From: Verrucomicrobiia bacterium
GTDB lineage: Bacteria > Patescibacteriota > Saccharimonadia > Saccharimonadales > JAGQNK01
Direction of reading: 5' to 3'
Length of the DNA stretch: 64,000 nt
Assembly (NCBI GenBank): GCA_035489575.1
Contig: DATHJY010000011.1
Coordinates: 84,514 to 148,513 of the forward strand
Shown here: piece after piece, positions 30,807 through 49,631 of the stretch
How the letters are laid out: each line of letters opens with the position of its first letter
Position numbering within the stretch: the first letter of the stretch is position 1
Made by a program: the position numbers and the translations under genes
The notes under the pieces: model-generated
Told to the model about the DNA's origin: nothing
The model's input: only the letters and a program-made list of their open reading frames with translations
Databases searched by the model: none

Positions 30807-31220
30807 ATGCCAACAATTAATCAGTTAGTGCGCAAACCGCGCAAGGCTAAGACATCCAAGTCTAAGTCACCACACCTGCAACGTGTGGTCAACAACCTGA
30901 AGACCACCAACTACGAAAAGCCCGCCCCATTCAAACGCGGTGTCTGTGTCAAGGTAACCACCAAGACCCCTAAAAAGCCTAACTCTGCGCTTCGCAAAGT
31001 TGCCCGCGTTCGTCTGAACAACGGCTATGAAGTCTGGGCTTACATTGGCGGCGAAGGCCACAACCTACAAGAACACGCCGTAGTCATGGTTCGTGGTGGT
31101 CGCGTACCGGACCTTCCCGGTGTTCGTTACCACATTGTCCGCGGAACCCTAGACCTCCAGGGTGTCCAAAACCGCAAGAATGGCCGCAGCAAGTACGGCA
31201 CCAAGAAGGAGAGCAAGTAA
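30807..31220 (+). CDS. rpsL: 30S ribosomal protein uS12
   Basis: 137 aa; [13 protein letters not shown]. Confidence 0.97.
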
Positions 31221-31369
31221 TGTCTTTCGCAGCCTTAAGGGAAAAGAGCAGCCAGAACGCGGATTCATTCCGCGTCCTGCGCGATGAAACGGGGTCCCCG
31301 CAAAACCTGTTTTGTGGGGTACAGAAAAACCGCAAGGTTTGTCTCATTACTCCGAAGGAGAGCAAGTAA
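31220..31369 (+). CDS. Mini-ORF 1 of the junction element (49 aa: [49 protein letters not shown])
   Basis: The ATG overlaps the rpsL stop (TAATG). The frame stays open to TAA at 31367-31369, 1 nt before the rpsG ATG. Too short for the ORF track. Confidence 0.45.
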   Translation: MSFAALREKSSQNADSFRVLRDETGSPQNLFCGVQKNRKVCLITPKESK

Positions 31370-31370
31370 G
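31221..31370 (+). repeat. Junction-insertion element copy 1 (core 31238-31347, carrying a nested 36-nt hairpin insertion)
   Basis: Shares the core AGGGAAAAGAGCAGCC...GATGA..GAAAAACCGCAAGGTTTGTCTCAT with three other copies. Flanked by a perfect 16-bp direct repeat, GAAGGAGAGCAAGTAA (31205-31220 and 31354-31369). Confidence 0.85.
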
Positions 31371-31850
31371 ATGCCTCGTAAAGTTACCAAATCACTCGTT
31401 CGTCCTATCAACCCAGACCGTCTATACAACGACGTTATGGTCCAGCGCCTGATCAACCGTGTCATGCTGAATGGTAAAAAGCAATTGGCCGAGCGCCTGG
31501 TATATAACGGCATGCAAGAAGCAGCCGACACTCTCAAGGTCAAAAACCCTGTAGAGGTGTTTACCCAAGCTATGCAAAATGTTCGCCCCTCCATGGAGAC
31601 TCGTTCTCGTCGCGTAGGTGGTGCCAACTACCAGATTCCTTTCGAGGTTAAAGGTCAGCGCCAAAACCACCTGACTATGATGTGGTTCGTAGCCGCAGCC
31701 CGTGCCCGCAAAGGCATGAGCATGCAGAAGCGTCTCGCTCTAGAACTCGTTGACGCCTACAACAGCACCGGCGCAGCCGTTAAGAAAAAAGAAGACACCC
31801 ACAAAATGGCCGAGGCCAACCGCGCCTTTGCCCACTTTGCGCGGAGCTAA
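31371..31850 (+). CDS. rpsG: 30S ribosomal protein uS7
   Basis: ORF 31284..31850, trimmed to MPRKVTKSLVRPINPD... after SD GAAGGAG. Confidence 0.95.
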   Translation: MPRKVTKSLVRPINPDRLYNDVMVQRLINRVMLNGKKQLAERLVYNGMQEAADTLKVKNPVEVFTQAMQNVRPSMETRSRRVGGANYQIPFEVKGQRQNHLTMMWFVAAARARKGMSMQKRLALELVDAYNSTGAAVKKKEDTHKMAEANRAFAHFARS

Positions 31851-31851
31851 C

Positions 31852-32406
31852 ATGTCCGCAGAAGTTCGCACCGGAAAAAGTGTCGTCATAGATCAGCACA
31901 TTGGGCGGCCAGCTGGCAAGCGAGTGTCGCGCCGCCGTGCCTCCTTTGAAGATATTCACGCACACCTAGGTATCAGCCAGCCCGAAAGGAATCGGCTTGG
32001 TGGCCTTATTCAGCCCGGCGACGAATTTCTGCTATTCCTAAATGTAGGTCGCACTCGCAGGCGTACACCACCCGTCATGGGAGTGGGCGTTATCTTACGT
32101 GACCACCTGCAGGAAGGTGACGTAATCTTTAGTGGTGAAATCAAAGTGCCAAAATTAGGTGACCCCACCGAAGAACCAGAAACAAGGCAAGGCACCTTTC
32201 ATTTTGACCCAGAAATGGTAGATAGACTGAGTCGGGACGATTACACCAACGTACCGCTCGCCGCTCGCGGAGCGGCCGACCTCATTGCCACCCGTGTATT
32301 TCATCTCGACCCAGTAGATACCGAATTAGAAACAACGTATGACGCACTCCGAGCCAACGTAGAACCCATGAGCTGGGTCAATTTTCATGAGAGAGTATGG
32401 CCGTGA
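31852..32406 (+). CDS. Hypothetical protein inserted between rpsG and fusA
   Basis: ATG 1 nt after the rpsG stop (GGAGctaacATG). 184 aa (MSAEVRTGKSVVIDQH...) with no recognised domain. Confidence 0.55.
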   Translation: MSAEVRTGKSVVIDQHIGRPAGKRVSRRRASFEDIHAHLGISQPERNRLGGLIQPGDEFLLFLNVGRTRRRTPPVMGVGVILRDHLQEGDVIFSGEIKVPKLGDPTEEPETRQGTFHFDPEMVDRLSRDDYTNVPLAARGAADLIATRVFHLDPVDTELETTYDALRANVEPMSWVNFHERVWP

Positions 32407-32440
32407 AACAAAAGAACATAACGCTTAAGATAGGATAATT

Positions 32441-34528
32441 ATGGCAGCAAAAAAATACCCACTCGATAAGCTCCGCAACATTGGCATTATTGCTCATATT
32501 GACGCCGGCAAAACAACTACAACCGAAGGTATTCTGTACCGCACGGGGCTTAAGCACAAAATTGGTGCCGTTCATGAGGGCGAAACCACCACAGACTGGA
32601 TGGCTCAAGAGCGCGAGCGTGGTATTACTATTGTGTCTGCTGCCGTTACTTGCTACTGGAGAGATCACCAGATCAATATCATCGATACCCCGGGACACAT
32701 CGACTTTACCGTCGAGGTAGAACGTTCGTTGCGCGTTCTAGACGGTGCAGTTGTTGTCTTTGACGGCAAGATGGGCGTGGAATCTCAGTCAGAAACTGTC
32801 TGGCGCCAGGCTACCAAGTACGGTGTGCCTCGTGTCTGCTTTATCAACAAGATCAACCAAACTGGTGGCGATTTCTACAAATCACTCGACACCATTCATG
32901 CCCGCCTGAGCAAGCGCGCATTTCCCATCCACCTGCCTATCGGCTTTGAACAGTCTATTAACGGCATTATAGACCTGGTCAGTCAAAAGGCGTACACCTA
33001 CAAAGAATTCACCGACAAAGAACTTGTAGAAACCGAAGTCCCTGAAGACATGAAAGACAAGGTTGCCAAGTACCGCAGCCTCCTCATCGAAAACGCTGTC
33101 GCCGAAGACGAAGCCATACTCGAGAAGTTCTTCGAGGTTGGCGAAGAAGGTCTGAGTGAAGCTGATGTTAGGCAAGCTATCCGCACAGCCACGCTGGCGG
33201 GTGACTTTTATCCCGTCACTGGTGGCGACGGCCGTGGTGTTATCGTAGAAAAAGTCCTCGATATGGTGGTAGATATTTTGCCATCACCCCTCGACCGTGG
33301 CTCAACCTGGGGCACCCACCCCAAAACTGGTGACGAAATCGAGCGCAAGCCCGATGCTGACCAGCCCATGGCTGGTCTGGCGTTCAAGATCACCACCGAC
33401 CCATTTGTGGGTAAACTCGCTTACTTCCGTGTTTATTCCGGCAAGCTGATCGCTGGCTCTTACATACTGAACACTTCTACCGGCGAGAAAGAACGCGTAG
33501 GCCGCATCGTTCGTATGCAGGCCGACAAACGCGAAGACGTTACCGAAGTAGAAGCCGGTGACATTGCCGCTATCGTGGGCCTCAAGGGCACCACAACGGG
33601 TCACACCCTGGCAGATCCCAATAACCCAATCGTTCTCGAGAGCATCACCTTCCCAGAACCTCCCGTGTCTATCGCCATAGAGCCCAAGACCAAGTCTGAC
33701 CAAGAAAAGATGAGCCTAGCCCTACAGCGCCTGGCAGAAGAAGACCCCACTTTCCGTATCAGAGTAGACGACGAGACCGGCCAGACTATCATCTCCGGCA
33801 TGGGCGAGCTGCATCTGGAGATCCTAGTAGACCGCATGAAGCGCGAATTCTCCGTAGAGGCCAACATTGGTGCGCCACAAGTTGCCTACCGCGAAACCAT
33901 TCGCAAAGACGCCGTCGAGGCAGAGGGCAAGTTTATCCGCCAGAGTGGTGGTCGCGGGCAATACGGTCATGTATGGCTACGCCTCAGCCAGAACGAGGCC
34001 GGCAAAGGCTTTGAGTTCATCAACTCCATCAAGGGTGGTATTGTTCCCAATGAATACATCAAGCCCGTCCAAGAAGGTATCAAAGAAGCCATGAACAACG
34101 GCGTTATTGCCGGCTACCCCATGGTAGATATCAAGGCTGAGCTTTACGACGGCAGCTACCACGATGTTGACTCCAACGAAATGGCCTTCAAGATCGCCGG
34201 CAGTATGGGCCTCCAAGAAGGTGCCAAAAAAGCCAATCCCGTACTCCTAGAACCTGTCATGAAGGTCGTAGTCGTCACCCCTGAAGAATTCATGGGTGAC
34301 GTTATCGGAGACCTCAACAGCAAACGCGGACGCATAGAGTCCATGGAAGATCTCAGCGCCGGCATCAAAGAAATCACTGCATTTGTACCACTTGGCGAAA
34401 TGTTTGGTTACACTACCAACCTCCGCAGCAATACCCAAGGTCGCGCTAGTTCCAGCATGGAATTGGATCATTACGCTGACGTGCCAAGCCACGTAGCAGA
34501 AGCAATCGTTGCCAAAGCAGGGAAGTAA
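32441..34528 (+). CDS. fusA: Elongation factor G
   Basis: 695 aa; AHIDAGKTTTTE, DTPGHIDF. Confidence 0.97.
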   Translation: MAAKKYPLDKLRNIGIIAHIDAGKTTTTEGILYRTGLKHKIGAVHEGETTTDWMAQERERGITIVSAAVTCYWRDHQINIIDTPGHIDFTVEVERSLRVLDGAVVVFDGKMGVESQSETVWRQATKYGVPRVCFINKINQTGGDFYKSLDTIHARLSKRAFPIHLPIGFEQSINGIIDLVSQKAYTYKEFTDKELVETEVPEDMKDKVAKYRSLLIENAVAEDEAILEKFFEVGEEGLSEADVRQAIRTATLAGDFYPVTGGDGRGVIVEKVLDMVVDILPSPLDRGSTWGTHPKTGDEIERKPDADQPMAGLAFKITTDPFVGKLAYFRVYSGKLIAGSYILNTSTGEKERVGRIVRMQADKREDVTEVEAGDIAAIVGLKGTTTGHTLADPNNPIVLESITFPEPPVSIAIEPKTKSDQEKMSLALQRLAEEDPTFRIRVDDETGQTIISGMGELHLEILVDRMKREFSVEANIGAPQVAYRETIRKDAVEAEGKFIRQSGGRGQYGHVWLRLSQNEAGKGFEFINSIKGGIVPNEYIKPVQEGIKEAMNNGVIAGYPMVDIKAELYDGSYHDVDSNEMAFKIAGSMGLQEGAKKANPVLLEPVMKVVVVTPEEFMGDVIGDLNSKRGRIESMEDLSAGIKEITAFVPLGEMFGYTTNLRSNTQGRASSSMELDHYADVPSHVAEAIVAKAGK

Positions 34529-34530
34529 CC

Positions 34531-34761
34531 ATGGAATTTCCTGGACAAAGAGCGGCCGAAAGGCTCACAGATGCCATAAAAGAGCGAGCCCGGCAATGGT
34601 TCGTTAGGCTAGGCGACCAAGTGTTTGAAGCTATGATGGTTCCACCAAAAGACGACAACGAAATCGTGCCACAAGACCTGGCAGCGGCTGACGTGTGCCC
34701 TGACGAACCAGCCCCTCCAGAGGAAACACGCCGACCCGACCAACTCGCCAGCCGTTCGTAG
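34531..34761 (+). CDS. Small hypothetical ORF coupled to the fusA stop
   Basis: GGGAAGtaaccATG; 76 aa with an acidic, Pro-rich C-terminus. An antisense ORF of similar size also exists. Confidence 0.35.
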   Translation: MEFPGQRAAERLTDAIKERARQWFVRLGDQVFEAMMVPPKDDNEIVPQDLAAADVCPDEPAPPEETRRPDQLASRS

Positions 34762-34918
34762 GGGTAACTATCAAAATTCCAATCCACCCCGTTAGCACCT
34801 GCCCAAAGAGTCGCCCAAGCCTCTTTACAACTGGGGCGATATCAGATAAGATTATCCGGTAACTCGTGTGAGTTATCTATGCTCATGCAACTAATTAATT
34901 TTAAGGAGATCTACCTCT

Positions 34919-36103
<1,185 letters not shown>

Positions 36104-36152
36104 GTATCTCGCCCATTTGTCAGGGCGCATCGCGGGCAAAAACCTGCGACAG

Positions 36153-36187
36153 AAAAAGGAGCAGTACCATTTGTACAGCTCCTTTTT
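36153..36187 (+). terminator. Intrinsic terminator after tuf
   Basis: aaaaaggagc ... gctccttttt (10-bp stem, inner gtac/gtac). A-tract before and T-tract after, so potentially bidirectional. Confidence 0.65.
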
Positions 36188-36314
36188 CGTGCTCGGCCTT
36201 TGCTCCACGCTGCACTCCTGAAAATGCCCGAGCCATAGCGACTCACCCCAAAGATCCCTCAGCCAGAGAGAGTTTTCTTTTTGGTACATGCTTGGCGTAG
36301 AATTATTACATACT

Positions 36315-36734
36315 ATGAACGAAACCGGCGAAACGTCTGATAGCCCCGACCTCCTAGAGGTCAGTCCGCTCCCTATTCGCCGCAGGATTAGGCGCGCGCT
36401 GAGAGGTTCGGTGGAATTCTGCCCTCCTTGTCCCGCCAAAGGCTCGTGTGCGGGCAAAGTCACACCCCAGGTAGGAATTAGGCGGGCAAAAAACTCGTAT
36501 GACACCCCAGTAATACTTGCCGAGGTGATATTCACGGATAGAGATGGACTACGTAGTAAACCTAAAGTTGCTGGCATAGATCGGTTTGATGACGCCAAGT
36601 CCGAAGAGTTAGCATACCGACTCGAAAACCGAGTAGGTCGTTGTAACGGCCCCGCCGACGCTAACTGCCCAGCGCTTACCAACGACGCCATAAAACACTT
36701 AGCCGCAACCGTTATGGGTGACATAGACCAGTAG
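36315..36734 (+). CDS. Hypothetical Cys-containing protein between tuf and rpsJ
   Basis: Part of ORF 36288..36734 (MNETGETSD...CPPCPAKGSC...). No SD and an uncertain start. The opposite-strand 239-aa ORF was rejected. Confidence 0.35.
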   Translation: MNETGETSDSPDLLEVSPLPIRRRIRRALRGSVEFCPPCPAKGSCAGKVTPQVGIRRAKNSYDTPVILAEVIFTDRDGLRSKPKVAGIDRFDDAKSEELAYRLENRVGRCNGPADANCPALTNDAIKHLAATVMGDIDQ

Positions 36735-36860
36735 GCACCTTCCATTTCCGGCATAAATGTTGTAAAATCATATCTATAAACTAATTGTGATGACTAAAAG
36801 TCGTTGTGCATGCTCTCTTATAGCAGTTCAAAGATGTTACATCACCAAGGAGATAGTTCT

Positions 36861-37226
36861 ATGGCTGAAGCCAAGAAACCAGCAGCAAAGACTGCTGCTA
36901 AAAAAACCGAAGCACCCGCTGGCAAACAACGTATTCGTATTCGCCTAAAGGCCTACGACCATAAAGTAATCGACCAATCTGCCAAGCAGATCGTTGACAC
37001 CGCCCTGCGTACCGGCGCCACCATTGCCGGCCCGATCCCACTGCCTACCAAGAAGACGCTTTACACCGTTGTCAAAAGCCCGCACGTCTACAAAAAAGGA
37101 CGTGAGCAATTCGAGATGCGCGTACACAAACGCCTTATCGACGTCCTAGAGCCCACCCCCAAGACCATCGACAGCCTCATGAACTTGAGCCTGCCAGCTG
37201 GTTGCGACGCCGAAATTAAGATGTAA
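36861..37226 (+). CDS. rpsJ: 30S ribosomal protein uS10 (with Lys/Ala-rich N-terminal extension)
   Basis: ORF 36804..37226, trimmed to the ATG after [24 protein letters not shown]. Confidence 0.92.
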
Positions 37227-37263
37227 CATTCGTTGCATAAATAGTTATTTTATGCTATAATAT

Positions 37264-37292
37264 GTACCTCTGTGAATAGCAGAGGTACTTTT
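37264..37292 (+). terminator. Intrinsic terminator directly after rpsJ
   Basis: gtacctctg tgaatag cagaggtac followed by tttt. It separates rpsJ from rplC. Confidence 0.6.
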
Positions 37293-37321
37293 ATATGTCA
37301 GTACCAGAGAAGGGTGTTTGA

Positions 37322-37368
37322 TGCGAGGAGCAAGTCTTGCCGTTTGGCAGCAAGGCTTGCTCCTCGCA
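37322..37368 (+). other. Perfect 13-bp stem hairpin upstream of the high-GC ORF
   Basis: tgcgaggagcaag ... cttgctcctcgca with a structured 21-nt loop. It lies 42 nt before the GTG start at 37411. Confidence 0.5.
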
Positions 37369-37410
37369 TCGACCGCAACTTGTCCCATTCGACCAGACCA
37401 AGGAGGCCTT

Positions 37411-38040
37411 GTGCCTGCTACCTCCACCGTCCCCGACAGCGGTGAACTCCTGGACGGAGACTTCTGCTACGAACTCGTCCGACCGGGCTGCTACAACGTC
37501 TACAGCAACAACGCGGAGCTAGACCTCGGCAAGCTCTTCCCCCAAGGCTTCCACGGTGAAGTCAATCTTGGCATGGAAGGTGTGCACTGGGCAATCGGCG
37601 TCAAGCGTGAAGCTCGAAACCCGGCCCACCTCTGTGCCCAGATCCTGCCGGCTCACCGAGGCACCAGCATGCAGATCCTGACCAACGCCGCACGCGTCCT
37701 GCGCGAAGCGTTCTGGCCGACCGACCTCCCAGATCACACCCCCGTCCGGGCGACGAACGTTGCCGACCACAGGCGTGTGCCGCTGAACCTCGGCGAGGTC
37801 CAAGTGGGCATGAAGGTCTGCACCCGCGGCAGCATCCAAGTGCACGGCATCGTGGCCGAGATCGGACACGATGACGATGGCCGAGACGCCGTGTGCCTCT
37901 CCAGATCACCGTACATCGCCCACTTCGAGGACCCCCAGGGACGCAGGTGGTATTATGCCGACCTAATGGGGCTTGTCCCACGCCACGCCGGCACCAACCG
38001 TGCCCACTGGGACCCTCGCAGCTACACCCTTCCGGACTGA
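37411..38040 (+). CDS. High-GC hypothetical protein, family member 1 (shared C-terminal motif)
   Basis: Start is aAGGAGGccttGTG. Codon third positions are mostly G/C. C-terminus: YADLMGLVPRHAGTNRAHWDPRSYTLPD. The ORF-track start at 37318 would read through the upstream hairpin. Confidence 0.6.
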   Translation: MPATSTVPDSGELLDGDFCYELVRPGCYNVYSNNAELDLGKLFPQGFHGEVNLGMEGVHWAIGVKREARNPAHLCAQILPAHRGTSMQILTNAARVLREAFWPTDLPDHTPVRATNVADHRRVPLNLGEVQVGMKVCTRGSIQVHGIVAEIGHDDDGRDAVCLSRSPYIAHFEDPQGRRWYYADLMGLVPRHAGTNRAHWDPRSYTLPD

Positions 38041-38047
38041 CAGCGTG

Positions 38048-38092
38048 TCATCATGGTGGCCATCCACACCCTGGCTCTGGCCACCATGATGA
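38048..38092 (+). repeat. Conserved palindrome H1 (TCATCATGGTGGCCA / TGGCCACCATGATGA)
   Basis: 15-bp perfect stem with a 15-nt loop, starting 7 nt after the stop of 37411-38040. Confidence 0.8.
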
Positions 38093-38130
38093 CACAACAA
38101 TTTACTTATATGATCATGTACAATACGCTT

Positions 38131-38403
38131 ATGGCCTCAAAAACAAAAAAGAAACAAACCTCACAGGAATTAGACAGCATTTATATCCTCAAACTTGTGG
38201 TGTATCTGGTGCTTGGGTCGCTCTGGCTCAAAATAACCGACGGGCAAGACACTCAGATACCTATTCCTATCGGCTTTTTCATCGGCCTGGTATTTGCCAG
38301 TCATGACCACATTCAGCTGGATCGCAAGATTGGGTATGCCGTACTGCTCGTGGCCATGCTCATTGGCTTTTGGGCACCGTTTGGCGTCTACGTTGCCACA
38401 TAA
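38131..38403 (+). CDS. Small membrane protein
   Basis: Part of ORF 38053..38403. Start placed after the palindrome (MASKTKKKQTSQ...). Two or three hydrophobic helices. Start uncertain. Confidence 0.45.
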   Translation: MASKTKKKQTSQELDSIYILKLVVYLVLGSLWLKITDGQDTQIPIPIGFFIGLVFASHDHIQLDRKIGYAVLLVAMLIGFWAPFGVYVAT

Positions 38404-39212: not shown

Positions 39213-39213
39213 G

Positions 39214-39852
39214 ATGGCTGTACCTACTTATACAAAAGCCGGTGCCAAGGCTTCTACTCCAGCCAAGCTCGACAAGGCTGTCTTTTCAGTGATGCCAGAG
39301 AACCATGAGCTCATTCAAGTAGCTTATGTAGCATACTTGGCAAACGGCCGCGGGAACTTGGCACAGACAAAGACTCGCGGTCTTGTTAGTGGTGGTGGTA
39401 AGAAACCATGGAAACAAAAGGGTACTGGCCGGGCTCGTTTTGGCTCAAGCCGTAACCCTATTTGGCGCGGTGGTGGTATCGCCTTTGGTCCTACTGGCCA
39501 AGAAAACTACAAGCAAAAACTGCATGTTACAGCAAAGCGTCTGGCCATCCGCCAGGCTCTCAGCCTGAAAGCAGATACCAGCGCTATTAAAGTTATCGAG
39601 ACTTTTGAGTGTAAGGATGGCACTGTTAAGCCAACCATCAAACTCCTGGAGAGGATCGAAGCAAAGGGCAATACCCTGATTGTCGTAAGCAATAAGGACA
39701 CCTTGGTCGAGCGCGCAACACGCAACCTCCAGAACGTCAAAGCTATACACGCCAAGTACCTGAATGTCTATGATGTCATAAACGCTGACACCATTGTAGT
39801 GAGCAAGAAAGCCCTCGACATCGTCCATGAGTGGCTGGGAGGTGATAAGTAA
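39214..39852 (+). CDS. rplD: 50S ribosomal protein uL4
   Basis: ORF 39187..39852, trimmed to the ATG after AAGGAGG. GTGRARFGS motif. Confidence 0.93.
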   Translation: MAVPTYTKAGAKASTPAKLDKAVFSVMPENHELIQVAYVAYLANGRGNLAQTKTRGLVSGGGKKPWKQKGTGRARFGSSRNPIWRGGGIAFGPTGQENYKQKLHVTAKRLAIRQALSLKADTSAIKVIETFECKDGTVKPTIKLLERIEAKGNTLIVVSNKDTLVERATRNLQNVKAIHAKYLNVYDVINADTIVVSKKALDIVHEWLGGDK

Positions 39853-40199
39853 TGGATAAGACTATGATTCTAAAACCTCGCATCAGCGAGAAAGCTTATG
39901 CCATGAGCCAAGACGGCAAAAGCGTCTACGTATTCGTAGTACCCAAAGAAACCAGCAAGCAAGCAATTGCTTCAGCTGTGGCTACTCAGTATGGCGTAAC
40001 CGTTACTGCCGTTAATACAACCGTCACTAAAGGCAAGGCAAAACGAACCGTCCGCAAGGGTGGTCGTGCTATTGCCGGCCGCACCAACACCATCAAGAAG
40101 GCCTACGTCACCCTGAAAACGGGCGACTCTATTGCCATCTTCAAGGCTACTGAAGACGAGAAGCCAGCTGCCAAGGCTGCCAAAAAGGAGAAGAAATAA
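39852..40199 (+). CDS. rplW: 50S ribosomal protein uL23
   Basis: 115 aa. TAATG-coupled to rplD. Operon position and sequence fit. Confidence 0.9.
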   Translation: MDKTMILKPRISEKAYAMSQDGKSVYVFVVPKETSKQAIASAVATQYGVTVTAVNTTVTKGKAKRTVRKGGRAIAGRTNTIKKAYVTLKTGDSIAIFKATEDEKPAAKAAKKEKK

Positions 40200-41053
40200 T
40201 GGCCATTAAAGCATACAAGCCTACCACTCCTGGTCAGCGCGGTATGACCACTCAGGACATGAGTGCTATTACCACCAAGAAGCCACTGAAGTCCTTGACA
40301 GTCATCAAGAAAAAGCATTCTGGCCGTAATAACCAGGGCCGTATTACTACTCGCCACCGCGGTGGTGGTGTCCGTAAGTTCTATCGCCTGATTAACTTCA
40401 ACCTGCCCGCAGGTACTACGGCAACTATCGAACATATCGAATACGACCCTAACCGCAGCGCTCGTATTGCGCGCGTCAAAGACCAAGACAACGTGTACCA
40501 CTATGTATTGGCTGCCAAGGATATGAAAGTTGGTCAAACCATTGCCAGTGGCGAAGAAATTGCCATCGAAAACGGCAACCGCCTACCGCTCAAAAACATT
40601 CCAGTTGGTAGCGTTATCCACGCCATCGAACTGCAACCTGGTCGTGGTGCCCAATTAGCCCGCAGCGCTGGCAACAGTGCCCAGCTGATGGCCAAAGAAG
40701 GAACTTACGCCCAGGTCAAATTGCCCTCTGGTGAAGTCCGTCTGGTCAACATTAACTGCACCGCCAGTTTAGGTGTTATTGGCAACGAACAACATCAGAA
40801 CATCAAGATTGGTAAAGCAGGACGCAATCGCCACAAGGGCAAGCGCCCAGGTGTGCGTGGTGTTGTTATGAACGCGGCCGATCACCCTCATGGTGGTGGT
40901 GATGGTGGCCGTCACGGCGTCGGTGGTGGTAAGAACCACGGTACAGCTCCCAAGACCCCTTGGGGCCAAAAGACCCTGGGCTTCAAGACCCGCCGCCGCA
41001 AGAGCACAACCAAGTTTATCTTAAAGAGCCGTCACGCGGCGAAGAGGAAATAA
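40199..41053 (+). CDS. rplB: 50S ribosomal protein uL2
   Basis: 284 aa; ADHPHGGGDGG. Confidence 0.96.
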   Translation: MAIKAYKPTTPGQRGMTTQDMSAITTKKPLKSLTVIKKKHSGRNNQGRITTRHRGGGVRKFYRLINFNLPAGTTATIEHIEYDPNRSARIARVKDQDNVYHYVLAAKDMKVGQTIASGEEIAIENGNRLPLKNIPVGSVIHAIELQPGRGAQLARSAGNSAQLMAKEGTYAQVKLPSGEVRLVNINCTASLGVIGNEQHQNIKIGKAGRNRHKGKRPGVRGVVMNAADHPHGGGDGGRHGVGGGKNHGTAPKTPWGQKTLGFKTRRRKSTTKFILKSRHAAKRK

Positions 41054-41065
41054 GGGAGTATATAG

Positions 41066-41341
41066 ATGAGTCGTTCACTCAAAAAAGGGCCATTCATAGA
41101 TCCCAAGCTCGCCAAGAAAGTGGCCGCACTGGGTAATGAAGACCGCACCATCATCAAGACATGGGCTCGTTCGAGCACCATCAGCCCAGACTTTGTTGGC
41201 CGTACTATTGCTGTACACAATGGCAAAGTTCATGTACCAGTATTCGTTACCGAAAACATGGTTGGTCACAAACTCGGCGAGTTTAGCCCAACCCGTAAAT
41301 TCCGCAGTCATGGCGGCAAGCTCGCGAAAGGCAAGAAGTAA
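41066..41341 (+). CDS. rpsS: 30S ribosomal protein uS19
   Basis: 91 aa; [10 protein letters not shown]. Confidence 0.95.
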
Positions 41342-41721
41342 TGGCAGTTACCGCTATCGCTAAAGGCGTTCGCATGAGCCCACGCAAAGTCGGTGTTGTA
41401 GCCGCTTTGGTTCGTGGCCGCACCGTAGCTGACGCGCTGACAATCCTTCAGCACACCCCTCGTCGCTCGGCATTGCCTGTCAAGAAAGTTATCGAAAGTG
41501 CCCGGGCTAACGCCGACCACAACCACAACTACAAGGCAGACACCTTGCAGATTGTGTCCATCCAGGTCAGCCCTGGCCCTCGTTTTAAACGGTACCGTCC
41601 CGCAGCTCATGGTCGCGCATTGCCATTCCAGCGACGCACCAGCCATATTCATGTAGTCGTCGATGGCGAGCAGCGAGCAGCCAAAAAGTCAGCATCATCT
41701 GCGAAAAAGGAGACAAAATAA
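41341..41721 (+). CDS. rplV: 50S ribosomal protein uL22
   Basis: 126 aa; TAATG-coupled; correct operon position. Confidence 0.92.
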   Translation: MAVTAIAKGVRMSPRKVGVVAALVRGRTVADALTILQHTPRRSALPVKKVIESARANADHNHNYKADTLQIVSIQVSPGPRFKRYRPAAHGRALPFQRRTSHIHVVVDGEQRAAKKSASSAKKETK

Positions 41722-42353
41722 TGGGACAGAAGGTAAATCCAATTAGCATGCGTCTTCAGGTCAATAAAGACTGGCGCAGCAAGTGGTTCGCTTCCAAGCG
41801 CGACTATGCAAAGTTCTTGGGCCAAGACCTCAAGATCCGCAAACTAATCCAAGACAAGGTCGGTTCACGTGGTGCTATCAACAAGGTAGACATCGAACGT
41901 TCGCCTAACCTGGTATCAGTCACTATCACCACCGCCAAGGCCGGTGTAGTTATCGGTCGCGGTGGCGCAGGCGCCCAGGAGCTCAAGGCAGCTATAGAGA
42001 AAATCTATGGTTTCCCGGCTCGTGTAAATATTGAAGAAATCAAAAAGCCAGAACTGTACGCCAAGCTCGTTGCCGAGAACATCGCCCACCAGTTGGAGCG
42101 CCGTATTGCTTTCCGGCGAGCCATGAAACAGTCCGCAGGCGCAACCATGCGCGCTGGTGCCAAAGGCATCCGTATTGAAATAGCCGGACGCCTCGGCGGT
42201 GCCGAAATGTCTCGCCGCGAGAAAACAGTCGAAGGCTCAGTGCCACTGCACACCCTTCGTGCTGATGTCGACTACCACGCAGCCCGTGCCAAGTATCCAG
42301 GTGCCGGTATTATCGGTATCAAGGTCTGGATCTACAAAGGGGAGGTTAATTAA
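41721..42353 (+). CDS. rpsC: 30S ribosomal protein uS3
   Basis: 210 aa; MGQKVNP..., KH domain, GRLGGAEMSR. Confidence 0.95.
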   Translation: MGQKVNPISMRLQVNKDWRSKWFASKRDYAKFLGQDLKIRKLIQDKVGSRGAINKVDIERSPNLVSVTITTAKAGVVIGRGGAGAQELKAAIEKIYGFPARVNIEEIKKPELYAKLVAENIAHQLERRIAFRRAMKQSAGATMRAGAKGIRIEIAGRLGGAEMSRREKTVEGSVPLHTLRADVDYHAARAKYPGAGIIGIKVWIYKGEVN

Positions 42354-42475
42354 TATGATTTCTTCTGTTGTTTTAAGGGAAAAGAGCAGCCAGAACGCGG
42401 ATTCATTCCGCGTCCTGCGCGATGAGAAAAACCGCAAGGTTTGTCTCATGGCTTGCAAAGGGGAGGTAAACTAAT
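42354..42475 (+). repeat. Junction-insertion element copy 2 (core 42376-42449)
   Basis: Core identical to copy 1 apart from the nested insertion. Flanking 23-nt direct repeat CAAAGGGGAGGT(T/A)AA(T/C)TAATATG at 42335-42357 and 42456-42478 (21 of 23). Confidence 0.85.
42355..42474 (+). CDS. Mini-ORF 2 (39 aa: [39 protein letters not shown])
   Basis: ATG 1 nt after the rpsC stop; TAA 1 nt before the rplP ATG. Corresponds to the tail of ORF-track entry 42199..42474. Confidence 0.45.
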
Positions 42476-42889
42476 ATGCTTATCCCGAACCGAACCAAAC
42501 ACCGTAAGGTGTTCAAGGGCCGCGTTCGCGGACCCGCCACCACTGGCAATCATATTGCCTTTGGTCAGTTTGCCCTGCAAGCCCAAGGTCACGAGCGCAT
42601 CACCAGTCGTCAGATCGAGTCCGCTCGTCAGGCAATGACCCGCTACGTGAAACGTGGTGGTAAAATCTGGATTCGTATCTTCCCACACACACCTGTCAGC
42701 CGCAAGGCGCTCGGTACCAAGATGGGTAGCGGCAAAGGTAACCCAGAATTCTTCGTAGCCAAAGTCCGTCCCGGCACCATTATGTTCGAGATGCAAGGTG
42801 TGCCAGAAGAAACTGCACGCGAGGCAATGCGCCTGGCTGCCCACAAACTCCCTGTCAAGACCAAATTCTTGGTGAAGGAGGATGTTTAA
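42476..42889 (+). CDS. rplP: 50S ribosomal protein uL16
   Basis: 137 aa; [16 protein letters not shown]. Confidence 0.95.
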
Positions 42890-42890
42890 G

Positions 42891-43094
42891 ATGCAAAAAA
42901 TGACTGAAATTCGTAAATTATCAACCACAGAGCTAGCAAACGGAAGTACTAAGCTCCGTGAAGAAATCGCCGAACTAAAGCGCGGTCTTCACATGGGCGA
43001 AGTCACCAACGTCAAAGTCGTGCGCACAAAGCGCAAAGAACTGGCACGTATGCTGACCGTTCTGAGTGAGCAGCTCGCAAAGGAGACAAAATAA
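42891..43094 (+). CDS. rpmC: 50S ribosomal protein uL29
   Basis: ORF 42882..43094. The ATG at 42891 has better SD spacing (GAAGGAGG), but 42882 or 42900 remain possible. Confidence 0.85.
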   Translation: MQKMTEIRKLSTTELANGSTKLREEIAELKRGLHMGEVTNVKVVRTKRKELARMLTVLSEQLAKETK

Positions 43095-43210
43095 TGAGTT
43101 TTTCCATGGTCCTCAGGGAAAAGAGCAGCCAGAATGCGGATTTATTCCGCATGCTGCGCGATGAGAAAAACCGCAAGGTTTGTCTCATTACCCCGAAGGG
43201 GGCAAAATAA
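43094..43210 (+). CDS. Mini-ORF 3 (38 aa: [38 protein letters not shown])
   Basis: The ATG overlaps the rpmC stop (TAATG). The TAA overlaps the rpsQ ATG (TAATG). Confidence 0.45.
   Translation: MSFSMVLREKSSQNADLFRMLRDEKNRKVCLITPKGAK
43095..43209 (+). repeat. Junction-insertion element copy 3 (core 43115-43188)
   Basis: The core carries a compensatory variant of hairpin A (ATGCGGA tttat TCCGCAT). Flanking repeat at 43078-43096 and 43194-43212 (16 of 19). Confidence 0.85.
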
Positions 43211-43539
43211 TGGCACGTACATTAGTGGGTGTGGTTGCGTCTGACAAAGCCGACAAGACAATTGTTGTCCGGGTTGATACCAGAAAGACCCATCCGGTTT
43301 ATAAGAAGCAGTACACCACCAGCAAGAAGTTTATGGCTCACGACGAGCAAAACGAGGCACACACAGGTGACCGTGTTGAGATTTCCGAAACCCGTCCCCT
43401 GAGTGCTCGCAAACGTCACACGCTCAAGCGAGTGATCGAGCACGCCGCCATTCAGCACGTCGAAACCGTCGACAAAGCAGTAGCAGAAGTGACTGGCACC
43501 AAAGAAAAAGAAGAAACGGAAGCCGAGGAGAAGAAGTAA
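43210..43539 (+). CDS. rpsQ: 30S ribosomal protein uS17 (Glu/Lys-rich C-terminal extension)
   Basis: ORF 43180..43539, trimmed to [20 protein letters not shown]. Confidence 0.92.
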
Positions 43540-43907
43540 TGATTCAGCAAGAATCTCGCCTCAGTGTCTGTGATAACAGCGGTGCCAAGGAAATCCTATG
43601 CATCCGCGTACTGGGCGGCACCCGTCGGCGCTACGCCCGTGTAGGCGATGTTATTGTGGCTACCGTCAAACAAGCCAGTCCAACTGGTACCGTCAAAAAG
43701 AAGTCAGTTATCCGTGCAGTTGTTGTACGCACCAAGGACACCATTCGTCGCAAGGATGGCTCGACCATTAAGTTTGACGATAATGCAGCTGTTATTATCG
43801 GTGACGATAAAAACCCCAAGGCTACCCGTATCTTTGGCCCAGTCCCACGCGAACTGCGTGACCAAGGCTATGCCAAGATCATCAGCCTAGCACCGGAGGT
43901 CCTATAA
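43539..43907 (+). CDS. rplN: 50S ribosomal protein uL14
   Basis: 122 aa; [18 protein letters not shown]. Confidence 0.96.
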
Positions 43908-44233
43908 TGAGTGATCAGATCTATAAAATTCGCCTAAAGAAAGGCGACACTGTCGTCGTTCGTGCAGGCAAATATAAGGGCAAGTCCGGCAAGATTACTG
44001 CCGTACACCCTAGCCTCAACAAAGTGACCGTTGAGGGTATCAATATCGTCAAGAAACACCAGAAGCCAAACCGAGCTCACCCTCAGGGCGGCATCCTGGA
44101 AATCACCAAGCCTATAGATGTCAGCAAGGTTGGCATCAGTGACGGCGGCAAGCCCTCACGTATTGGCTACAAAGTCGACAAAGACGGTAAAAAGACTCGC
44201 ATCGCCAAGAAGTCTGGGAAGGAGATCAAATAA
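43907..44233 (+). CDS. rplX: 50S ribosomal protein uL24
   Basis: 108 aa; [16 protein letters not shown] (KOW motif). Confidence 0.93.
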
Positions 44234-44820
44234 TGGCTGAAGCAAAAACCGCTACAAAAGCGCCAGCAACTGCTGCACGCCTGAAAGCTCTGTACACCAG
44301 CAAGTTCGCCGACGAGCTACAGAAGGAGCTTGAGCTCCCTAACCGCAACCAGGTTCCAAAATTGGAAAAGATTGTTCTGAACGTTGGACTTGGCAAAGCC
44401 AAGGACGACAAAAAGATCATGGAAGTTGCCGCCAATACACTTCGCAAGATCACCGGCCAGCAACCCATAGAGACTGTTGCCAAGAATTCTATCGCCGGTT
44501 TCAAGCTGCGCGAAGGCAACAAGATCGGCCTAAAAGTTACATTACGCGGTAACTATATGTACGAATTCATGGATCGCCTGATTAACATTGTGCTACCACG
44601 TTTTCGTGACTTCCACGGCGTTAAGACCACTGCCTTTGACAAGTCCGGCAACTTTAGCCTGGGCCTCACCGACCAATCAGTCTTTCCTGAGCTTACCTTT
44701 GAAGAGACAACAACCGTCCATGGCATGCAAGTGGTATTTGTAATCACCTGCCAAGAACCCGCACATGCCCGTGCATTGCTAGAAAAGTTTGGTATGCCCT
44801 TTCAGAAAGGAGCTAAGTAA
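44233..44820 (+). CDS. rplE: 50S ribosomal protein uL5
   Basis: 195 aa; correct operon position and conserved blocks. Confidence 0.94.
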
Positions 44821-45089
44821 TGGCTAAGAAATCTATGATTGCCCGCGATTTGAAGCGCCAAAAGATGGCAGATCGCTTTGCAGCCAAGCGAGCCGAATTG
44901 AAAAAGGTTGGCGACCGCGACGGTCTGCATAATCTGCCGCGCAACAGTTCGCCCACACGGCGCAAGAACCGGTGTGTCGAAACCGGCCGGCCGCGTGGCT
45001 TTATGCGCCAATTCGGCCTGAGCCGCATTAGTTTCCGCGAACACGCAAGCAAGGGCGAAATCCCTGGTGTAACAAAATCAAGCTGGTAA
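44820..45089 (+). CDS. rpsN: 30S ribosomal protein uS14 (long, non-zinc type)
   Basis: 89 aa with C-terminal [21 protein letters not shown]. No CxxC pairs. Confidence 0.92.
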
Positions 45090-45106
45090 GAAAGGAGATA
45101 GCTTTC

Positions 45107-45508
45107 GTGAGTACTACATCAACCGACCCAATCGCAGACATGCTGTCTCGCATTCGTAACGCTATTGCTGTTAGCAAGAGCGAGATCAGCATGCCACACA
45201 GCAAAGTTAAAGAATCTGTTGCCAAGCTGCTAAAAGACAATCGCTACGTAGATAGCGTTAACGTCGAAGACGCACGTGTTGGCAAAACACTAAAAATTAC
45301 CATCAACGGCCCGCAAAAGAACTCCCGGATCACCGAGATCAAGCGCATGAGTACCCCTGGCCGTCGTTACTACGCCAGCGCAGACCAGATCCCAACGGTC
45401 AAGCGTGGCCGTGGCGTTGTCATCATTAGCACTTCCAAGGGCATGATGACTGGCGCCGAAGCCAAGAAGCAAGGTGTTGGTGGTGAATTAATTTGTAAGA
45501 TTTACTAA
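45107..45508 (+). CDS. rpsH: 30S ribosomal protein uS8
   Basis: 133 aa with a GTG start after AAGGAG. DPIADMLSRIRNA. Confidence 0.94.
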   Translation: MSTTSTDPIADMLSRIRNAIAVSKSEISMPHSKVKESVAKLLKDNRYVDSVNVEDARVGKTLKITINGPQKNSRITEIKRMSTPGRRYYASADQIPTVKRGRGVVIISTSKGMMTGAEAKKQGVGGELICKIY

Positions 45509-45520
45509 AGGAACAAAGTA

Positions 45521-46060
45521 ATGAGTCGTATAGGAAAACTGCCCATCGATATACCGAGCGGCGTGACAATCACTGTCGACCCTGACTGGATTACTGTAGC
45601 GGGGAGCAAAGGCACCCTCAAGCAGTTCACCATGCCGGGCGTGACAGTTAAACAAGAAGACAATCAAGTTGTCGTCACCCGCATAAATGACGAAGCGCCA
45701 AACCGTGCCAAGCACGGGCTGATGCGCACACTGGTTGCCAACATGATAGAAGGCGTCAGCAAAGGCTTTGAGAAAAAGCTAGAGCTAAACGGCGTCGGCT
45801 TCCGTGTAGCGTTGGCTGGTCCTGGTCTGAAGTTCAATATTGGTTTCTCGCACGAGGTCAATTACGCACTGCCACAGGGCGTATCCGCCAAAGTAGAAAG
45901 TAATATTATTACAGTGTCTGGCATAGACAAACAACAGGTCGGCCAAGTCGCCGCTGAGATTCGTGCCCTCAAGAAGCCAGAACCCTACAAGGGCAAAGGT
46001 ATTAAGTACGTTGGCGAGCGGATTATCCGTAAGTCAGGTAAGTCAGGTAAGGACAAGTAG
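45521..46060 (+). CDS. rplF: 50S ribosomal protein uL6
   Basis: 179 aa; MSRIGKLPI. Confidence 0.94.
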   Translation: MSRIGKLPIDIPSGVTITVDPDWITVAGSKGTLKQFTMPGVTVKQEDNQVVVTRINDEAPNRAKHGLMRTLVANMIEGVSKGFEKKLELNGVGFRVALAGPGLKFNIGFSHEVNYALPQGVSAKVESNIITVSGIDKQQVGQVAAEIRALKKPEPYKGKGIKYVGERIIRKSGKSGKDK

Positions 46061-46061
46061 T

Positions 46062-46418
46062 ATGAACAGAATAACTCATAAGATCCAGAATCTTTCCCGC
46101 CGACGCAATCGTGTTCGTTCAACCGTGTCCGGCACTGCTGAACGTCCTCGCCTGAGCGTGCACGTCAGCAACAAGCACGTGAGTGCACAGATTATTGACG
46201 ATACCGCTCACAAAACCATTGCGCAGATCAGTACGGTTGGCCAAAAGGATGCCCTGGGCACCATGACCGAGCGCGCTACCTGGGTTGGTACCCAAATTGC
46301 AAAAAAGGCTAAGACTGCCAAAGTTCGTCAGGTCGTATTCGACCGCGGTGGCCGTCTGTACCATGGCCGCATAAAGGCCCTGGCTGACGCAGCCCGCGCC
46401 GGAGGATTGGAGTTCTAA
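46062..46418 (+). CDS. rplR: 50S ribosomal protein uL18
   Basis: ORF 45963..46418, trimmed to the ATG 1 nt after the rplF stop (MNRITHKIQNLSRRRNRVRS). Confidence 0.92.
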   Translation: MNRITHKIQNLSRRRNRVRSTVSGTAERPRLSVHVSNKHVSAQIIDDTAHKTIAQISTVGQKDALGTMTERATWVGTQIAKKAKTAKVRQVVFDRGGRLYHGRIKALADAARAGGLEF

Positions 46419-46419
46419 T

Positions 46420-46980
46420 ATGGCAGACCAAAGAGAACAACGAAGAGGCCGGCACGACAACCGACCGCCGCAAGAAGAAAAACAGTTCGACGAGCGCGTT
46501 GTAAACATCGACCGTGTTGCCCGTGTGGTTAAGGGCGGTCGCCGCTTCCGATTCCGCGCGCTGGTTGTCCTTGGCGACCACAAGGGTAGGGTAGGCATTG
46601 GCATCTCAAAGGGTGCTGACGTGACTACAGCCGTTGCCAAGGCCGTAGAAGTAGCCAAGAAGAGTATGGTGACCATCCATATGTACAACGACACTATCCC
46701 GCACGAGGCCGAGACGAAAGTCAGTGGTGCTCGTATCCTCATTAAGCCAGCCGCTCCTGGTACTGGTCTGATTGCAGGCGGTGTTGTTCGTACCGTGCTG
46801 GAAGTAACTGGTATCAAGAATGCATTGTCCAAGTCACTTGGCTCAAGCAACAAAATCAATATTGCCTACGCCACCCTAGCTGCACTGCAAAGTGTTGTGC
46901 CTGCTGACAAGTGGGTGACGAATCAGGGCGAGAAGAAAACCTCCACGAAAAAGTCCGTAGCCAAGGAGAGCGTAAAATGA
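46420..46980 (+). CDS. rpsE: 30S ribosomal protein uS5
   Basis: 186 aa; VVKGGRRFRFRALVVLGD. Confidence 0.95.
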   Translation: MADQREQRRGRHDNRPPQEEKQFDERVVNIDRVARVVKGGRRFRFRALVVLGDHKGRVGIGISKGADVTTAVAKAVEVAKKSMVTIHMYNDTIPHEAETKVSGARILIKPAAPGTGLIAGGVVRTVLEVTGIKNALSKSLGSSNKINIAYATLAALQSVVPADKWVTNQGEKKTSTKKSVAKESVK

Positions 46981-47084
46981 AAGTAAGGGAAAAGAGCAGC
47001 CGGAGCGGGCGAATTTATTTCGCCGCCCCGCGCGATGAGAAAAACCGCAAGGTTTGTCTCATCACAGCTGTGGAGGCCAAATAA
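46977..47084 (+). CDS. Mini-ORF 4 (35 aa: [35 protein letters not shown])
   Basis: The ATG overlaps the rpsE stop (ATGA). TAA at 47082-47084 directly abuts the rplO ATG at 47085. Confidence 0.4.
   Translation: MKVREKSSRSGRIYFAAPRDEKNRKVCLITAVEAK
46981..47084 (+). repeat. Junction-insertion element copy 4 (core 46986-47062; most diverged)
   Basis: Same 5' block (AGGGAAAAGAGCAGCC) and hairpin B. Hairpin A is replaced by a different but still complementary sequence (CGG a GCGGGCGAA tttat TTCGCCGC c CCG). Confidence 0.8.
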
Positions 47085-49565: not shown

Positions 49566-49631
49566 CGAATAACACGTCATGTATACTGGAGTGAGTTTAC
49601 ACAAAACAACCGGAGAATCTTTGGGAAACAC

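Follow-up and report, generated by a model that had tools for sequence, protein, structure and literature searches.

A structured RNA element of Saccharibacteria, its genomic contexts, and the coupled open reading frames at its ribosomal-protein operon junctions

Helices 25 and 45 of 23S rRNA are the classical sites of intervening sequences (IVSs) excised by RNase III. Rickettsia palindromic elements (RPEs) are selfish repeats that lie in frame within protein genes and also in RNA genes. Other bacterial repeats are co-transcribed with genes, among them miniature inverted-repeat transposable elements (MITEs) and the Correia/NEMIS, ERIC, BOX, and RUP repeats. To our knowledge, nothing resembling a short interspersed element (SINE) is established in bacteria. 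The subject here is a repeat that can be compared with each of these systems. It was met as four copies in a ribosomal-protein gene cluster on a 64,000-nt stretch of contig DATHJY010000011.1 (the window). Rather than a protein gene, the repeat is probably a structured RNA element that Saccharibacteria carry in multiple copies on the sense strand; its core spans about 76 nt and has no match in Rfam.

Like the 23S rRNA IVSs of Salmonella, Coxiella, and Leptospira, the element forms short, non-intron insertions without open reading frames (ORFs) at the tips of helices 25 and 45. However, classical IVSs are confined to rRNA, whereas the element also occurs in tRNA, 5S, and 23S leaders, in 5' untranslated regions (UTRs), and at operon junctions. 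IVSs are also known for their excision by RNase III, whereas the element is known here from sequence alone. RPEs resemble the element in being short structured repeats in coding and RNA-gene contexts that are tolerated in coding sequence only with an open frame. An RPE joins the host protein, whereas the element forms a separate ORF between two genes, coupled at both ends. RPEs are unrelated to it in sequence and host lineage, and the element's flank duplications are long and variable.

MITE-type repeats share with the element an occurrence in multiple copies, a length of about 100 nt, hairpins, proximity to genes, and presence that varies between strains; the element, too, is present or absent at orthologous sites. 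However, those repeats have terminal inverted repeats and short, fixed target duplications (e.g., TA) and occur in both orientations, whereas the element has no inverted ends, carries variable duplications of 11–43 nt, and is almost always in sense orientation. It also departs from REP/RAYT and IS200/IS605 elements in having duplications and in sitting 5' of genes. SINE-like retroposition offers a likeness in its variable-length duplications, ill-defined ends, sense orientation, and bias to the most abundant transcripts. The element has neither an A-tail nor a known reverse-transcriptase partner, so the likeness is one of resemblance only.

Two features of ribosomal-protein operons are also relevant. 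Termination-reinitiation takes place there at TAATG and ATGA overlaps, and the mini-ORFs described below use exactly these overlaps at both ends. The difference is that the element is a structured insert bridged by an extra, otherwise meaningless ORF, with two coupling events in series. As in the Nomura model of operators, the same motif is found both in rRNA and at typical operator positions. However, Nomura operators each serve one ribosomal protein at conserved positions, whereas the element is one motif everywhere, sporadic in its distribution, and with no known binding protein.

A structured RNA family

The four window copies are direct repeats on the + strand, located at the S12/S7, S3/L16, L29/S17, and S5/L15 junctions. 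In each, the invariant blocks AGGGAAAAGAGCAGCC and GCGCGATGAGAAAAACCGCAAGGTTTGTCTCAT surround a hairpin of varying sequence in which pairing is kept. Both blocks occur four times in the window, on the + strand only, where 0.00 and 0.08 occurrences are expected by chance. All four copies fold better than shuffled sequence, with z-scores of -2.6 to -4.6. A covariance-model scan with filters off found no fifth copy in the 64-kb window.

Further copies were collected from related operons and from metagenome contigs. Eighty related operons (L001–L080) were retrieved with the L3 protein. Nearly all are metagenome-assembled genomes labelled Saccharibacteria or Saccharimonadales, and the closest has 88% L3 identity. 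Profile and covariance-model searches of their S10-spc regions revealed 11 additional copies in nine of the 80, at further junctions (L3/L4, L4/L23, L23/L2, L2/S19, L24/L5, L29/S17, and S12/S7). Scanning metagenome contigs, which carried no taxon assignment in the analysis, for the exact pattern of one hairpin (H2, described below) yielded at least 120 loci. Altogether, 200 loci and the window hold at least 152 copies, 135 of them unique, and the family counts given here are those of this sample. No viral contig matched the element. Rfam returned nothing at the gathering score over the window and nothing relevant at an E-value ≤10 over 42300–43300, which holds two copies. No publication describing the motif was found in a literature search of limited coverage, which leaves its novelty unproven.

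The 5' part of the element is a conserved single-stranded purine tail, AAGGGAAAAGAGCA. It is followed by P1, a long hairpin with a conserved base (G:C, C:G, a bulged C, C:G) and a top that covaries freely or is replaced, either by a three-way junction or by a stub in a form of 47–50 nt. A single linker G separates P1 from H2, a 12-bp hairpin (AUGAGAAAAACC/GGUUUGUCUCAU) with a conserved A·G mismatch. After H2 there is often a small hairpin, H3, which holds the Shine-Dalgarno (SD) sequence of the next gene. The predicted fold energy of the consensus core is about -30 kcal/mol.

Covariation supports this structure. In a MAFFT alignment of 114 copies, standard pairs occupy 96.4% of cells, and two-sided changes are found in 252 cells vs 70.9 ± 12.5 in shuffles. 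The covariation score is 0.277, compared with at most 0.061 when the partners are slid. Pair 18:46, for example, is C:G in 62 copies, G:C in 28, and A:U in 23. H2 varies in 20 copies found by profile search only, with compensatory changes at 7 of 10 H2 pairs. Backed by compensatory changes of this kind, the base pairs define a structured RNA family. Pair 54:78 is G·U in 16 copies and A·C in none, which points to the sense strand.

Several variants bear on the structure. A minimal form of 47–50 nt with a P1 stub (GCAGCGCAGCG or GCGGCGAAGCG) is present in L111 (558–607 and 732–781), L104, L193, L123 (1091–1140), and L135 (1437–1487). Wherever the downstream sequence was identified, it lies about 5 nt upstream of the 23S rRNA 5' end. 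This form indicates that the tail, the P1 base, and H2 are the essential core. A diverged antisense copy is located in L001 (5914–5990, minus strand), between the S10 stop and the next gene and adjacent to a terminator-like hairpin. In this copy, H2 is fully compensated (GAGAGAACC/GGUUCUCUC), and the tail could pair with CUGCUCU in the 3' flank, closing a three-way junction. An upstream helix, P0, can form between a pyrimidine stretch and the tail, with a mean energy of -7.6 vs -6.4 kcal/mol in shuffled sequence. With this modest support, P0 is best regarded as optional; tRNA leaders have the strongest pairing (-9.2 kcal/mol), and junction copies lack it (-5.2 kcal/mol).

Four resemblances were considered and rejected. 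Within the tail is AAAGAGCA, which is E. coli boxA (UGCUCUUU) in reverse complement, but boxA-like words are not enriched upstream (5/132 vs a background of 2.9%). H2 could be taken for a tRNA-like 12-bp minihelix followed by ACCA, but the 3' flank is unconserved, its commonest 4-mers being AAGC (19 copies) and TACC (13 copies). Pairing of the tail with the 16S rRNA 3' end or with the H2 3' strand is weak, at -6 kcal/mol vs -14.4 kcal/mol for H2 itself. The hammerhead-like arrangement of copy 1 (GAUGA-hairpin-GAAA) has a core that reads GCGAUGA and lacks CUGA, and most copies have no stem II; the hairpin itself is confined to copy 1.

Open frames at operon junctions

A preliminary description of the window reported that all four copies are intact ORFs of 35–49 codons whose start and stop overlap or abut the stop and the ATG of the flanking genes. 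The coordinates bear this out:

31220–31369, + strand: copy 1 mini-ORF (49 aa), at the S12/S7 junction (rpsL 30807–31220; rpsG 31371–31850); its ATG overlaps the S12 TAA (TAATG) and its stop lies 1 nt before the S7 ATG (TAAgATG).
31237–31348, + strand: copy 1 RNA core, with purine tail, P1, and an H2 split by an extra hairpin; covariance-model score 50.7 bits.
31288–31323, + strand: extra 36-nt hairpin of copy 1 (CCCCGCAAAAC/GUUUUGUGGGG), in the 5' strand of H2 and with partial resemblance to H2.
42355–42474, + strand: copy 2 mini-ORF (39 aa), at the S3/L16 junction (rpsC 41721–42353; rplP 42476–42889); start TAAtATG, end TAAtATG.
42375–42450, + strand: copy 2 RNA core; covariance-model score 88.8 bits, fold z-score -4.56.
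43094–43210, + strand: copy 3 mini-ORF (38 aa), at the L29/S17 junction (rpmC 42882–43094; rpsQ 43210–43539); start TAATG, end TAATG.
43114–43189, + strand: copy 3 RNA core, with a two-sided compensatory P1 change relative to copy 2 (ACGCGGA/UCCGCGU to AUGCGGA/UCCGCAU).
46977–47084, + strand: copy 4 mini-ORF (35 aa), at the S5/L15 junction (rpsE 46420–46980; rplO 47085–47558); start in an ATGA overlap, end TAAATG.
46985–47063, + strand: copy 4 RNA core; 95.6 bits; P1 of different sequence (GGGCGAA/UUCGCC) and lower pair CGG/CCG, not CAG/CUG.

The extra segment of copy 1 is exactly 36 nt long, as had been stated, and without it the copy 1 core equals that of copy 2 except for the last base (T vs G). 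The four open frames of the window are not significant by themselves, because the frame is stop-free in 55% of untranslated copies (0.55^4, about 0.09). The wider family is more informative. A junction copy was defined by an ATG that overlaps or abuts the stop of a long upstream ORF, without regard to read-through. This gave 29 calls, of which three were false (L164, L136, and L192) and 26 real. All but one of the real junction copies read through from the junction ATG; in L125, the exception, read-through begins at another ATG, 6 nt beyond the upstream stop. The core is read through in 25/25 coupled junction copies vs 58/106 copies elsewhere in the same frame (Fisher p = 3e-6). The commonest obstacle, the UGA within the conserved GAUGAG, is in frame in 33/105 non-junction copies vs 0/25 junction copies (p = 5e-4). 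At the 3' side, 24 of the 26 real junction copies end between -4 and +2 nt from the downstream start. The exceptions are L083, which overlaps the next start by 16 nt, and L117 (groES/groEL), which stops 18 nt short. About 26 of the 135 unique copies are coupled ORFs.

Junction copies also form a subfamily. Their pair 18:46 is A:U in 17/22 cases vs 3/71 of the others (p = 1e-11), and H2 has a 4-nt loop in 18/26 vs 21/101 (p = 6e-6). These differences suggest a lineage adapted to junctions and moving from one to another.

Coupled ORFs are also found over inserts that have nothing to do with the element. Of 1301 neighbouring ribosomal-protein gene pairs in the 80 related operons, 957 are at most 10 nt apart. 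Among the gaps that exceed 45 nt, an ORF with coupling at each end bridges 60, and most of these ORFs are unrelated to the element. The gap count excludes S10/L3, S7/EF-G, EF-G/EF-Tu, EF-Tu/S10, and an L18/S5 clade with a uniform 118-nt gap that is probably a boundary misestimate. S10 and L3 are always apart in the relatives, by 174–8723 nt. Coupled inserts, most of them again unrelated, occur at L2/S19 in at least 14 genomes, at S12/S7 in eight, and at L22/S3 in six. Such ORFs over unrelated inserts are what is expected if any insert in these operons must be translated through. The window has unexplained ORFs of this sort at S7/fusA and fusA/tuf. A second, unrelated family of junction repeats was noticed in L019 and L037, at S12/S7, S3/L16, and L29/S17. 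It consists of tandem TTCAAGTTTCAATTTTCAATGCCAAATG-like units that end in GGAAGGAGTTG just before the next ATG, and its members are coupled ORFs too.

The preliminary description had offered two models for the mini-ORFs. One of them, a translated spacer whose frame is kept open so that downstream genes stay coupled, is supported by the uniform read-through of junction copies, by the avoidance of the UGA register, and by the 60 coupled inserts in relatives, most of them unrelated to the element. Selection thus appears, from these sequence comparisons, to keep the frame open and not to act on the peptide.

The other model, small basic proteins made in step with ribosomal proteins and selected as peptides, is extremely improbable. 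It can draw on the intact, coupled frames and on the recurrence of REKSS...RDEKNR in most junction copies. In addition, in three other samples (L202–L204), public gene callers annotate the mini-ORFs of 39 and 38 aa as genes without a family. However, about 80% of the at least 152 copies lie in untranslated contexts, where the same blocks are equally conserved, and the conserved nucleotides occur in three reading registers. Most translated copies encode LRDEKNR in the invariant GCGCGAUGAGAAAAACCG, whereas L017 and L179 encode GAMRKTA there and L016b encodes RRNEKK; an H2 loop of 3 vs 4 nt also switches the C-terminal frame (KVCLI vs RFVS). Codon-level conservation does not favour the model either. 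Minority bases in the conserved tail number 2/126, 8/126, and 4/126 at codon positions 1, 2, and 3, so third positions are no more variable than the others (4/126 vs 10/252 at positions 1 and 2 combined). The residues encoded by P1 change radically, because P1 evolves by paired substitutions. The N-termini of junction copies (MIA, MNLH, MKV, MSV, MFAAAI, MTVETRS, etc.) and their C-termini are unconserved. None of the four window peptides matches Pfam at an E-value ≤0.01, and in copy 3 the differences between the halves of the junction duplication alter amino acids.

The codon differences between window copies (TCT/AGT, TTC/TTT, TTA/CTC, ATT/ATC, and ACT/ACC/ACA), which had been taken as a sign of peptide selection, are all present. 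However, all of them lie outside the conserved core. The Ser2 and Phe3 codons belong to a variable pyrimidine-rich stretch upstream of the purine tail that is able to pair with the tail, and P0 pairing may be the source of these pyrimidine-rich codons after the ATG in copies 1–3. The Leu codon consists of the 3 nt immediately before AGGG, and the Ile and Thr codons are in the variable 3' flank after H2.

Genomic contexts and insertion

Most copies lie outside ORFs, and most also lie outside rRNA genes. Between 27 and 30 copies are positioned 3–17 nt upstream of co-oriented tRNA genes of many specificities, compared with one on the opposite strand. Others immediately precede 5S rRNA, and the short form is found 5 nt before 23S rRNA. 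Further copies are found in the 5' UTRs of rplK, rplJ, rplL, groEL (between groES and groEL), ssb, hrcA, and aminoacyl-tRNA synthetase genes. The trait shared by these contexts is a sense orientation on the 5' side of highly expressed genes. A coupled junction copy directly upstream of an RNase III-like gene (PF14622) in L172 (1315–1393) is a single case, relevant only should RNase III prove to cut the element.

At least six copies are located inside 23S rRNA, in insertions of 126–265 nt that replace loops of 8–11 nt. On E. coli numbering, the sites are helix 25 (~540–553), helix 45 (~1162–1223), helix 63 (~1704–1769), helix 79 (~2207–2213), and ~360–370; L102 maps to ~540–553 (helix 25) and L081b to ~1162–1223 (helix 45). 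In L107, a group I intron (1796–2054) is present in the same 23S rRNA gene as an element copy at helix 63. According to a 2024 survey, 64 of 66 rRNA insertions in Ca. Saccharibacteria are at most 250 bp long, have neither an intron nor a homing endonuclease, and are uncharacterised (PMC11270868). The accessible portion of that survey defines no shared motif among them, and the motif described here explains at least some of the short insertions that it reports.

The tRNA-leader copies look old and have no flank duplication. In five species, a copy in the tRNA-Lys leader has the same promoter (TTGAC-N17-GATAATGT), the same position, and the same tail, with an entirely different P1 top; H2 of these copies was fixed by the scan pattern. 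The conservation of this copy in place argues for maintenance of at least the leader copies. The tRNA-Tyr genes in L098 and L124 carry an upstream element, unlike the tRNA-Tyr gene of the window.

Evidence for insertion comes from the junctions. At the sites of the window copies, the corresponding junctions of relatives are tight (TAATG), as in ..AAGGAGAGCAAGTAATGCC.. at S12/S7, and occupancy varies among the related operons, the 11 copies found there lying at different junctions. Three of the four window copies are flanked by direct duplications, 16/16 nt identical in copy 1, 21/23 in copy 2, and 15/17 in copy 3:

31205–31220, + strand: left duplication of copy 1, GAAGGAGAGCAAGTAA, the end of S12 including the S7 SD; relatives have a single ..AAGGAGAGCAAGTAATG...
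31354–31369, + strand: right duplication of copy 1, which supplies the SD and stop before the S7 ATG; its GGAG pairs with CUCC in H3.
42335–42357, + strand: left 23-nt duplication of copy 2, CAAAGGGGAGGTTAATTAATATG; empty sites in L001–L012.
42456–42478, + strand: right duplication of copy 2, CAAAGGGGAGGTAAACTAATATG, 21/23 identical and ending in the L16 ATG.
43080–43096, + strand: left 17-nt duplication of copy 3, AAGGAGACAAAATAATG.
43196–43212, + strand: right duplication of copy 3, AAGGGGGCAAAATAATG, 15/17 identical; the two differences alter amino acids (KETK to KGAK).

Copy 4 shows nothing clear, and it is therefore probably the oldest. In the sample, flank duplications scoring at least 11 (11–43 nt) were found in 13/130 copies vs 0/385 mismatched flank pairs, and non-coding copies (L158, L121, L105, and L137) have them too. 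The tight junctions in relatives and the flank duplications together indicate that the element inserts. The ends of the inserts are ill-defined, lying 2–23 nt 5' and 4–17 nt 3' of the core. Inspection by eye of the duplication-bearing inserts found no terminal inverted repeats; their ends differ and are not complementary.

These features suggest how an insertion could be tolerated. The element would land in the overlapping stop/start junction (TAATG or ATGA) of an essential operon. Duplication of the SD-stop-start segment would leave the downstream gene's ATG orphaned at the left end and recreate SD, stop, and ATG at the right, so that coupling at both ends would come for free. After finishing the upstream gene, ribosomes would start again at the orphan ATG and open P1, H2, and H3 during translation; termination at the recreated stop would then be followed by a new start at the true ATG. 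Should a stop fall in frame within the element, ribosomes would be stranded before a structure of about -30 kcal/mol, and the downstream ribosomal-protein genes would be starved. For this reason only read-through versions would persist, and a junction-adapted subfamily would form. In the predicted folds of copies 1 and 3, H3 pairs with the SD, and downstream initiation there would depend on a passing ribosome. We infer selection through coupling, and likewise the way in which the element moves, from the patterns above.

The cluster that holds the four copies is ordered rpoB/rpoC, S12, S7, EF-G, EF-Tu, S10, L3 to L15, an ABC transporter, and SecY. The rpmD (L30) gene is absent between S5 and L15 (window 46980–47085), as is expected for this radiation, and copy 4 fills the junction. 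An ABC transporter gene (PF00664 and PF00005) separates rplO (L15) from secY (window 47626–49461 and 49548–51128). Additional ORFs of unknown function are found in the S7/fusA, fusA/tuf, tuf/S10, and S10/L3 gaps (31852–32406, 34531–34761, 36288–36734, 37318–38040, and 38053–38403). None of them has a Pfam match, and those at 31852–32406 and 34531–34761 begin right at the upstream stop. The segment 37600–37999 has a GC content of 65.7% vs about 51% in its surroundings. ENA ERZ27268085, SRR7026570, and JGI 3300020034 (L202, L203, and L204) contain the same strain, with 100% identity over 8 kb, and an S17-based look-up for strain variation returned only 100% identical strains in these three other samples.

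Possible roles in cis and meaning for Saccharibacteria

On balance, the element is likely to be an undescribed, multi-context, insertion-competent structured RNA element of Saccharibacteria. Several points weigh against this reading or narrow it. The invariance of H2 in the metagenome set is partly by construction, because those copies were fetched with the exact H2 pattern, although the tail and P1 are unaffected. For the fetched loci, gene boundaries were set by an ORF heuristic and BLAST and are uncurated. Flank duplications are seen in only about 10% of copies, terminal inverted repeats are lacking, and we know of no partner enzyme for movement. As the junction copies are a subfamily, their open frames may be partly inherited rather than selected copy by copy. 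No copy lies upstream of the three tRNA genes of the window (9991–10073, 62484–62556, and 63062–63144; anticodons, as read by eye, Leu-UAG, Thr-UGU, and Tyr-GUA), which makes the element dispensable at least there. Finally, translation of the mini-ORFs and any role at the RNA level are what we infer from sequence.

The most likely candidate for a role in cis, and a tentative one, is an IVS-like processing site or a factor-binding leader. A somewhat less probable explanation is a purely selfish mobile element, whose structure and conserved blocks would only help it to propagate, for instance as the feature that a reverse transcriptase or a nuclease recognises, with no benefit to the host. Inserts of about 100 nt would then be seen only where they are harmless, in leaders that are cut off, variable rRNA loops, UTRs, and junctions with an open frame, and the occupied places do match such least-harm sites. 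The sporadic distribution at junctions among relatives, the flank duplications of some copies, the recurrence of the same P1 types across contexts in the manner of subfamilies, and the absence of copies from the window's tRNA genes are also consistent with selfishness. However, the tRNA-Lys leader copy has been kept at one place behind one promoter in five species, its tail unchanged while the P1 top diverged. The orientation is nearly always sense and 5' of the gene, the distance to tRNA 5' ends is narrow (3–17 nt), and streamlined genomes would be expected to shed useless DNA. The possibility of a domesticated mobile RNA module is more doubtful. Such a module would mark the full set of translation-apparatus genes of Saccharibacteria, from tRNA, 5S, and 23S leaders and the 23S helices 25, 45, 63, and 79 to ribosomal-protein and chaperone mRNAs, would be used by one trans-acting nuclease or regulator as a common processing or operator signal, and would spread into abundant transcripts by template switching of a reverse transcriptase. 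That route of movement is speculation. It would explain together the sense-only orientation, the bias to highly expressed genes, the absence of inverted ends, and the variable 11–43-nt duplications.

The remaining explanations assign the motif a more specific function or place it at the DNA level. A common operator is unlikely. Here, one trans-acting protein would bind the motif in 23S rRNA and, when free, in ribosomal-protein mRNAs and tRNA/rRNA leaders by Nomura-type mimicry, which would balance the synthesis of rRNA, tRNA, and ribosomal proteins. The motif is indeed found inside 23S rRNA and at classical operator positions (S12/S7, rplK, rplJ, the S10 and S13 leaders, and L24/L5), and sequence conservation of both H2 strands and of the single-stranded tail suggests contact with a protein. 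Nevertheless, we know of no candidate protein, the presence of junction copies is sporadic from species to species, and the rRNA copies, which occupy IVS-type sites, may be excised. A new self-cleaving ribozyme, or a cassette specific for a nuclease, that cuts leaders, fragments 23S rRNA, and separates cistrons is quite unlikely. It would account for the occupancy of the classical IVS helices, the abutment of mature 5' ends, the conserved unpaired nucleotides at the helix junction, and the stable GCGAAGC-type mini-hairpin that often follows the element in mRNAs. Against it, no Rfam ribozyme class matched, even at an E-value ≤10; the hammerhead-like GAUGA..GAAA is without the required CUGA and mostly without stem II; and cleavage within a coupled mini-ORF would undo the coupling implied by its open frame. 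Very unlikely is a DNA-level element whose single-stranded hairpins are recognised by an IS200/IS605- or REP/RAYT-like enzyme, with the sense-only orientation arising from replication-strand bias, highly expressed genes being co-oriented with replication. The hairpins, the lack of terminal inverted repeats, and the strict strand bias would fit, and G·T wobbles are tolerated in DNA hairpins too. However, IS200/IS605 and REP/RAYT elements make no target duplication and insert by a fixed short target, typically 3' of genes, whereas 11–43-nt duplications are seen here and position is tied to gene 5' ends and rRNA helix tips. The antisense copy beside a terminator also argues against a DNA-level origin.

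If the element is what it probably is, the hypothetical genes of 33–49 aa in Saccharibacteria ribosomal-protein operons would be an annotation artefact, the footprint of an RNA element and not a protein family. A poorly understood lineage would gain an RNA family of at least 150 copies with no Rfam match. This family would connect topics hitherto treated separately, namely the short uncharacterised 23S rRNA insertions (PMC11270868), the long conserved leaders of tRNA and rRNA, and the inserts in ribosomal-protein operons. The junction copies would amount to a natural experiment on coupling, in which an essential operon tolerates a structured insert of about 100 nt only if an open frame, with a restart at each end, bridges it. 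The 60 junction inserts of relatives follow the same rule. The features of movement, with long variable duplications, no inverted ends, sense-only orientation, and a bias to abundant transcripts, fit no bacterial transposon family known to us. Should the domesticated-module explanation prove true, bacteria would have a SINE-like retroposon that serves its host.

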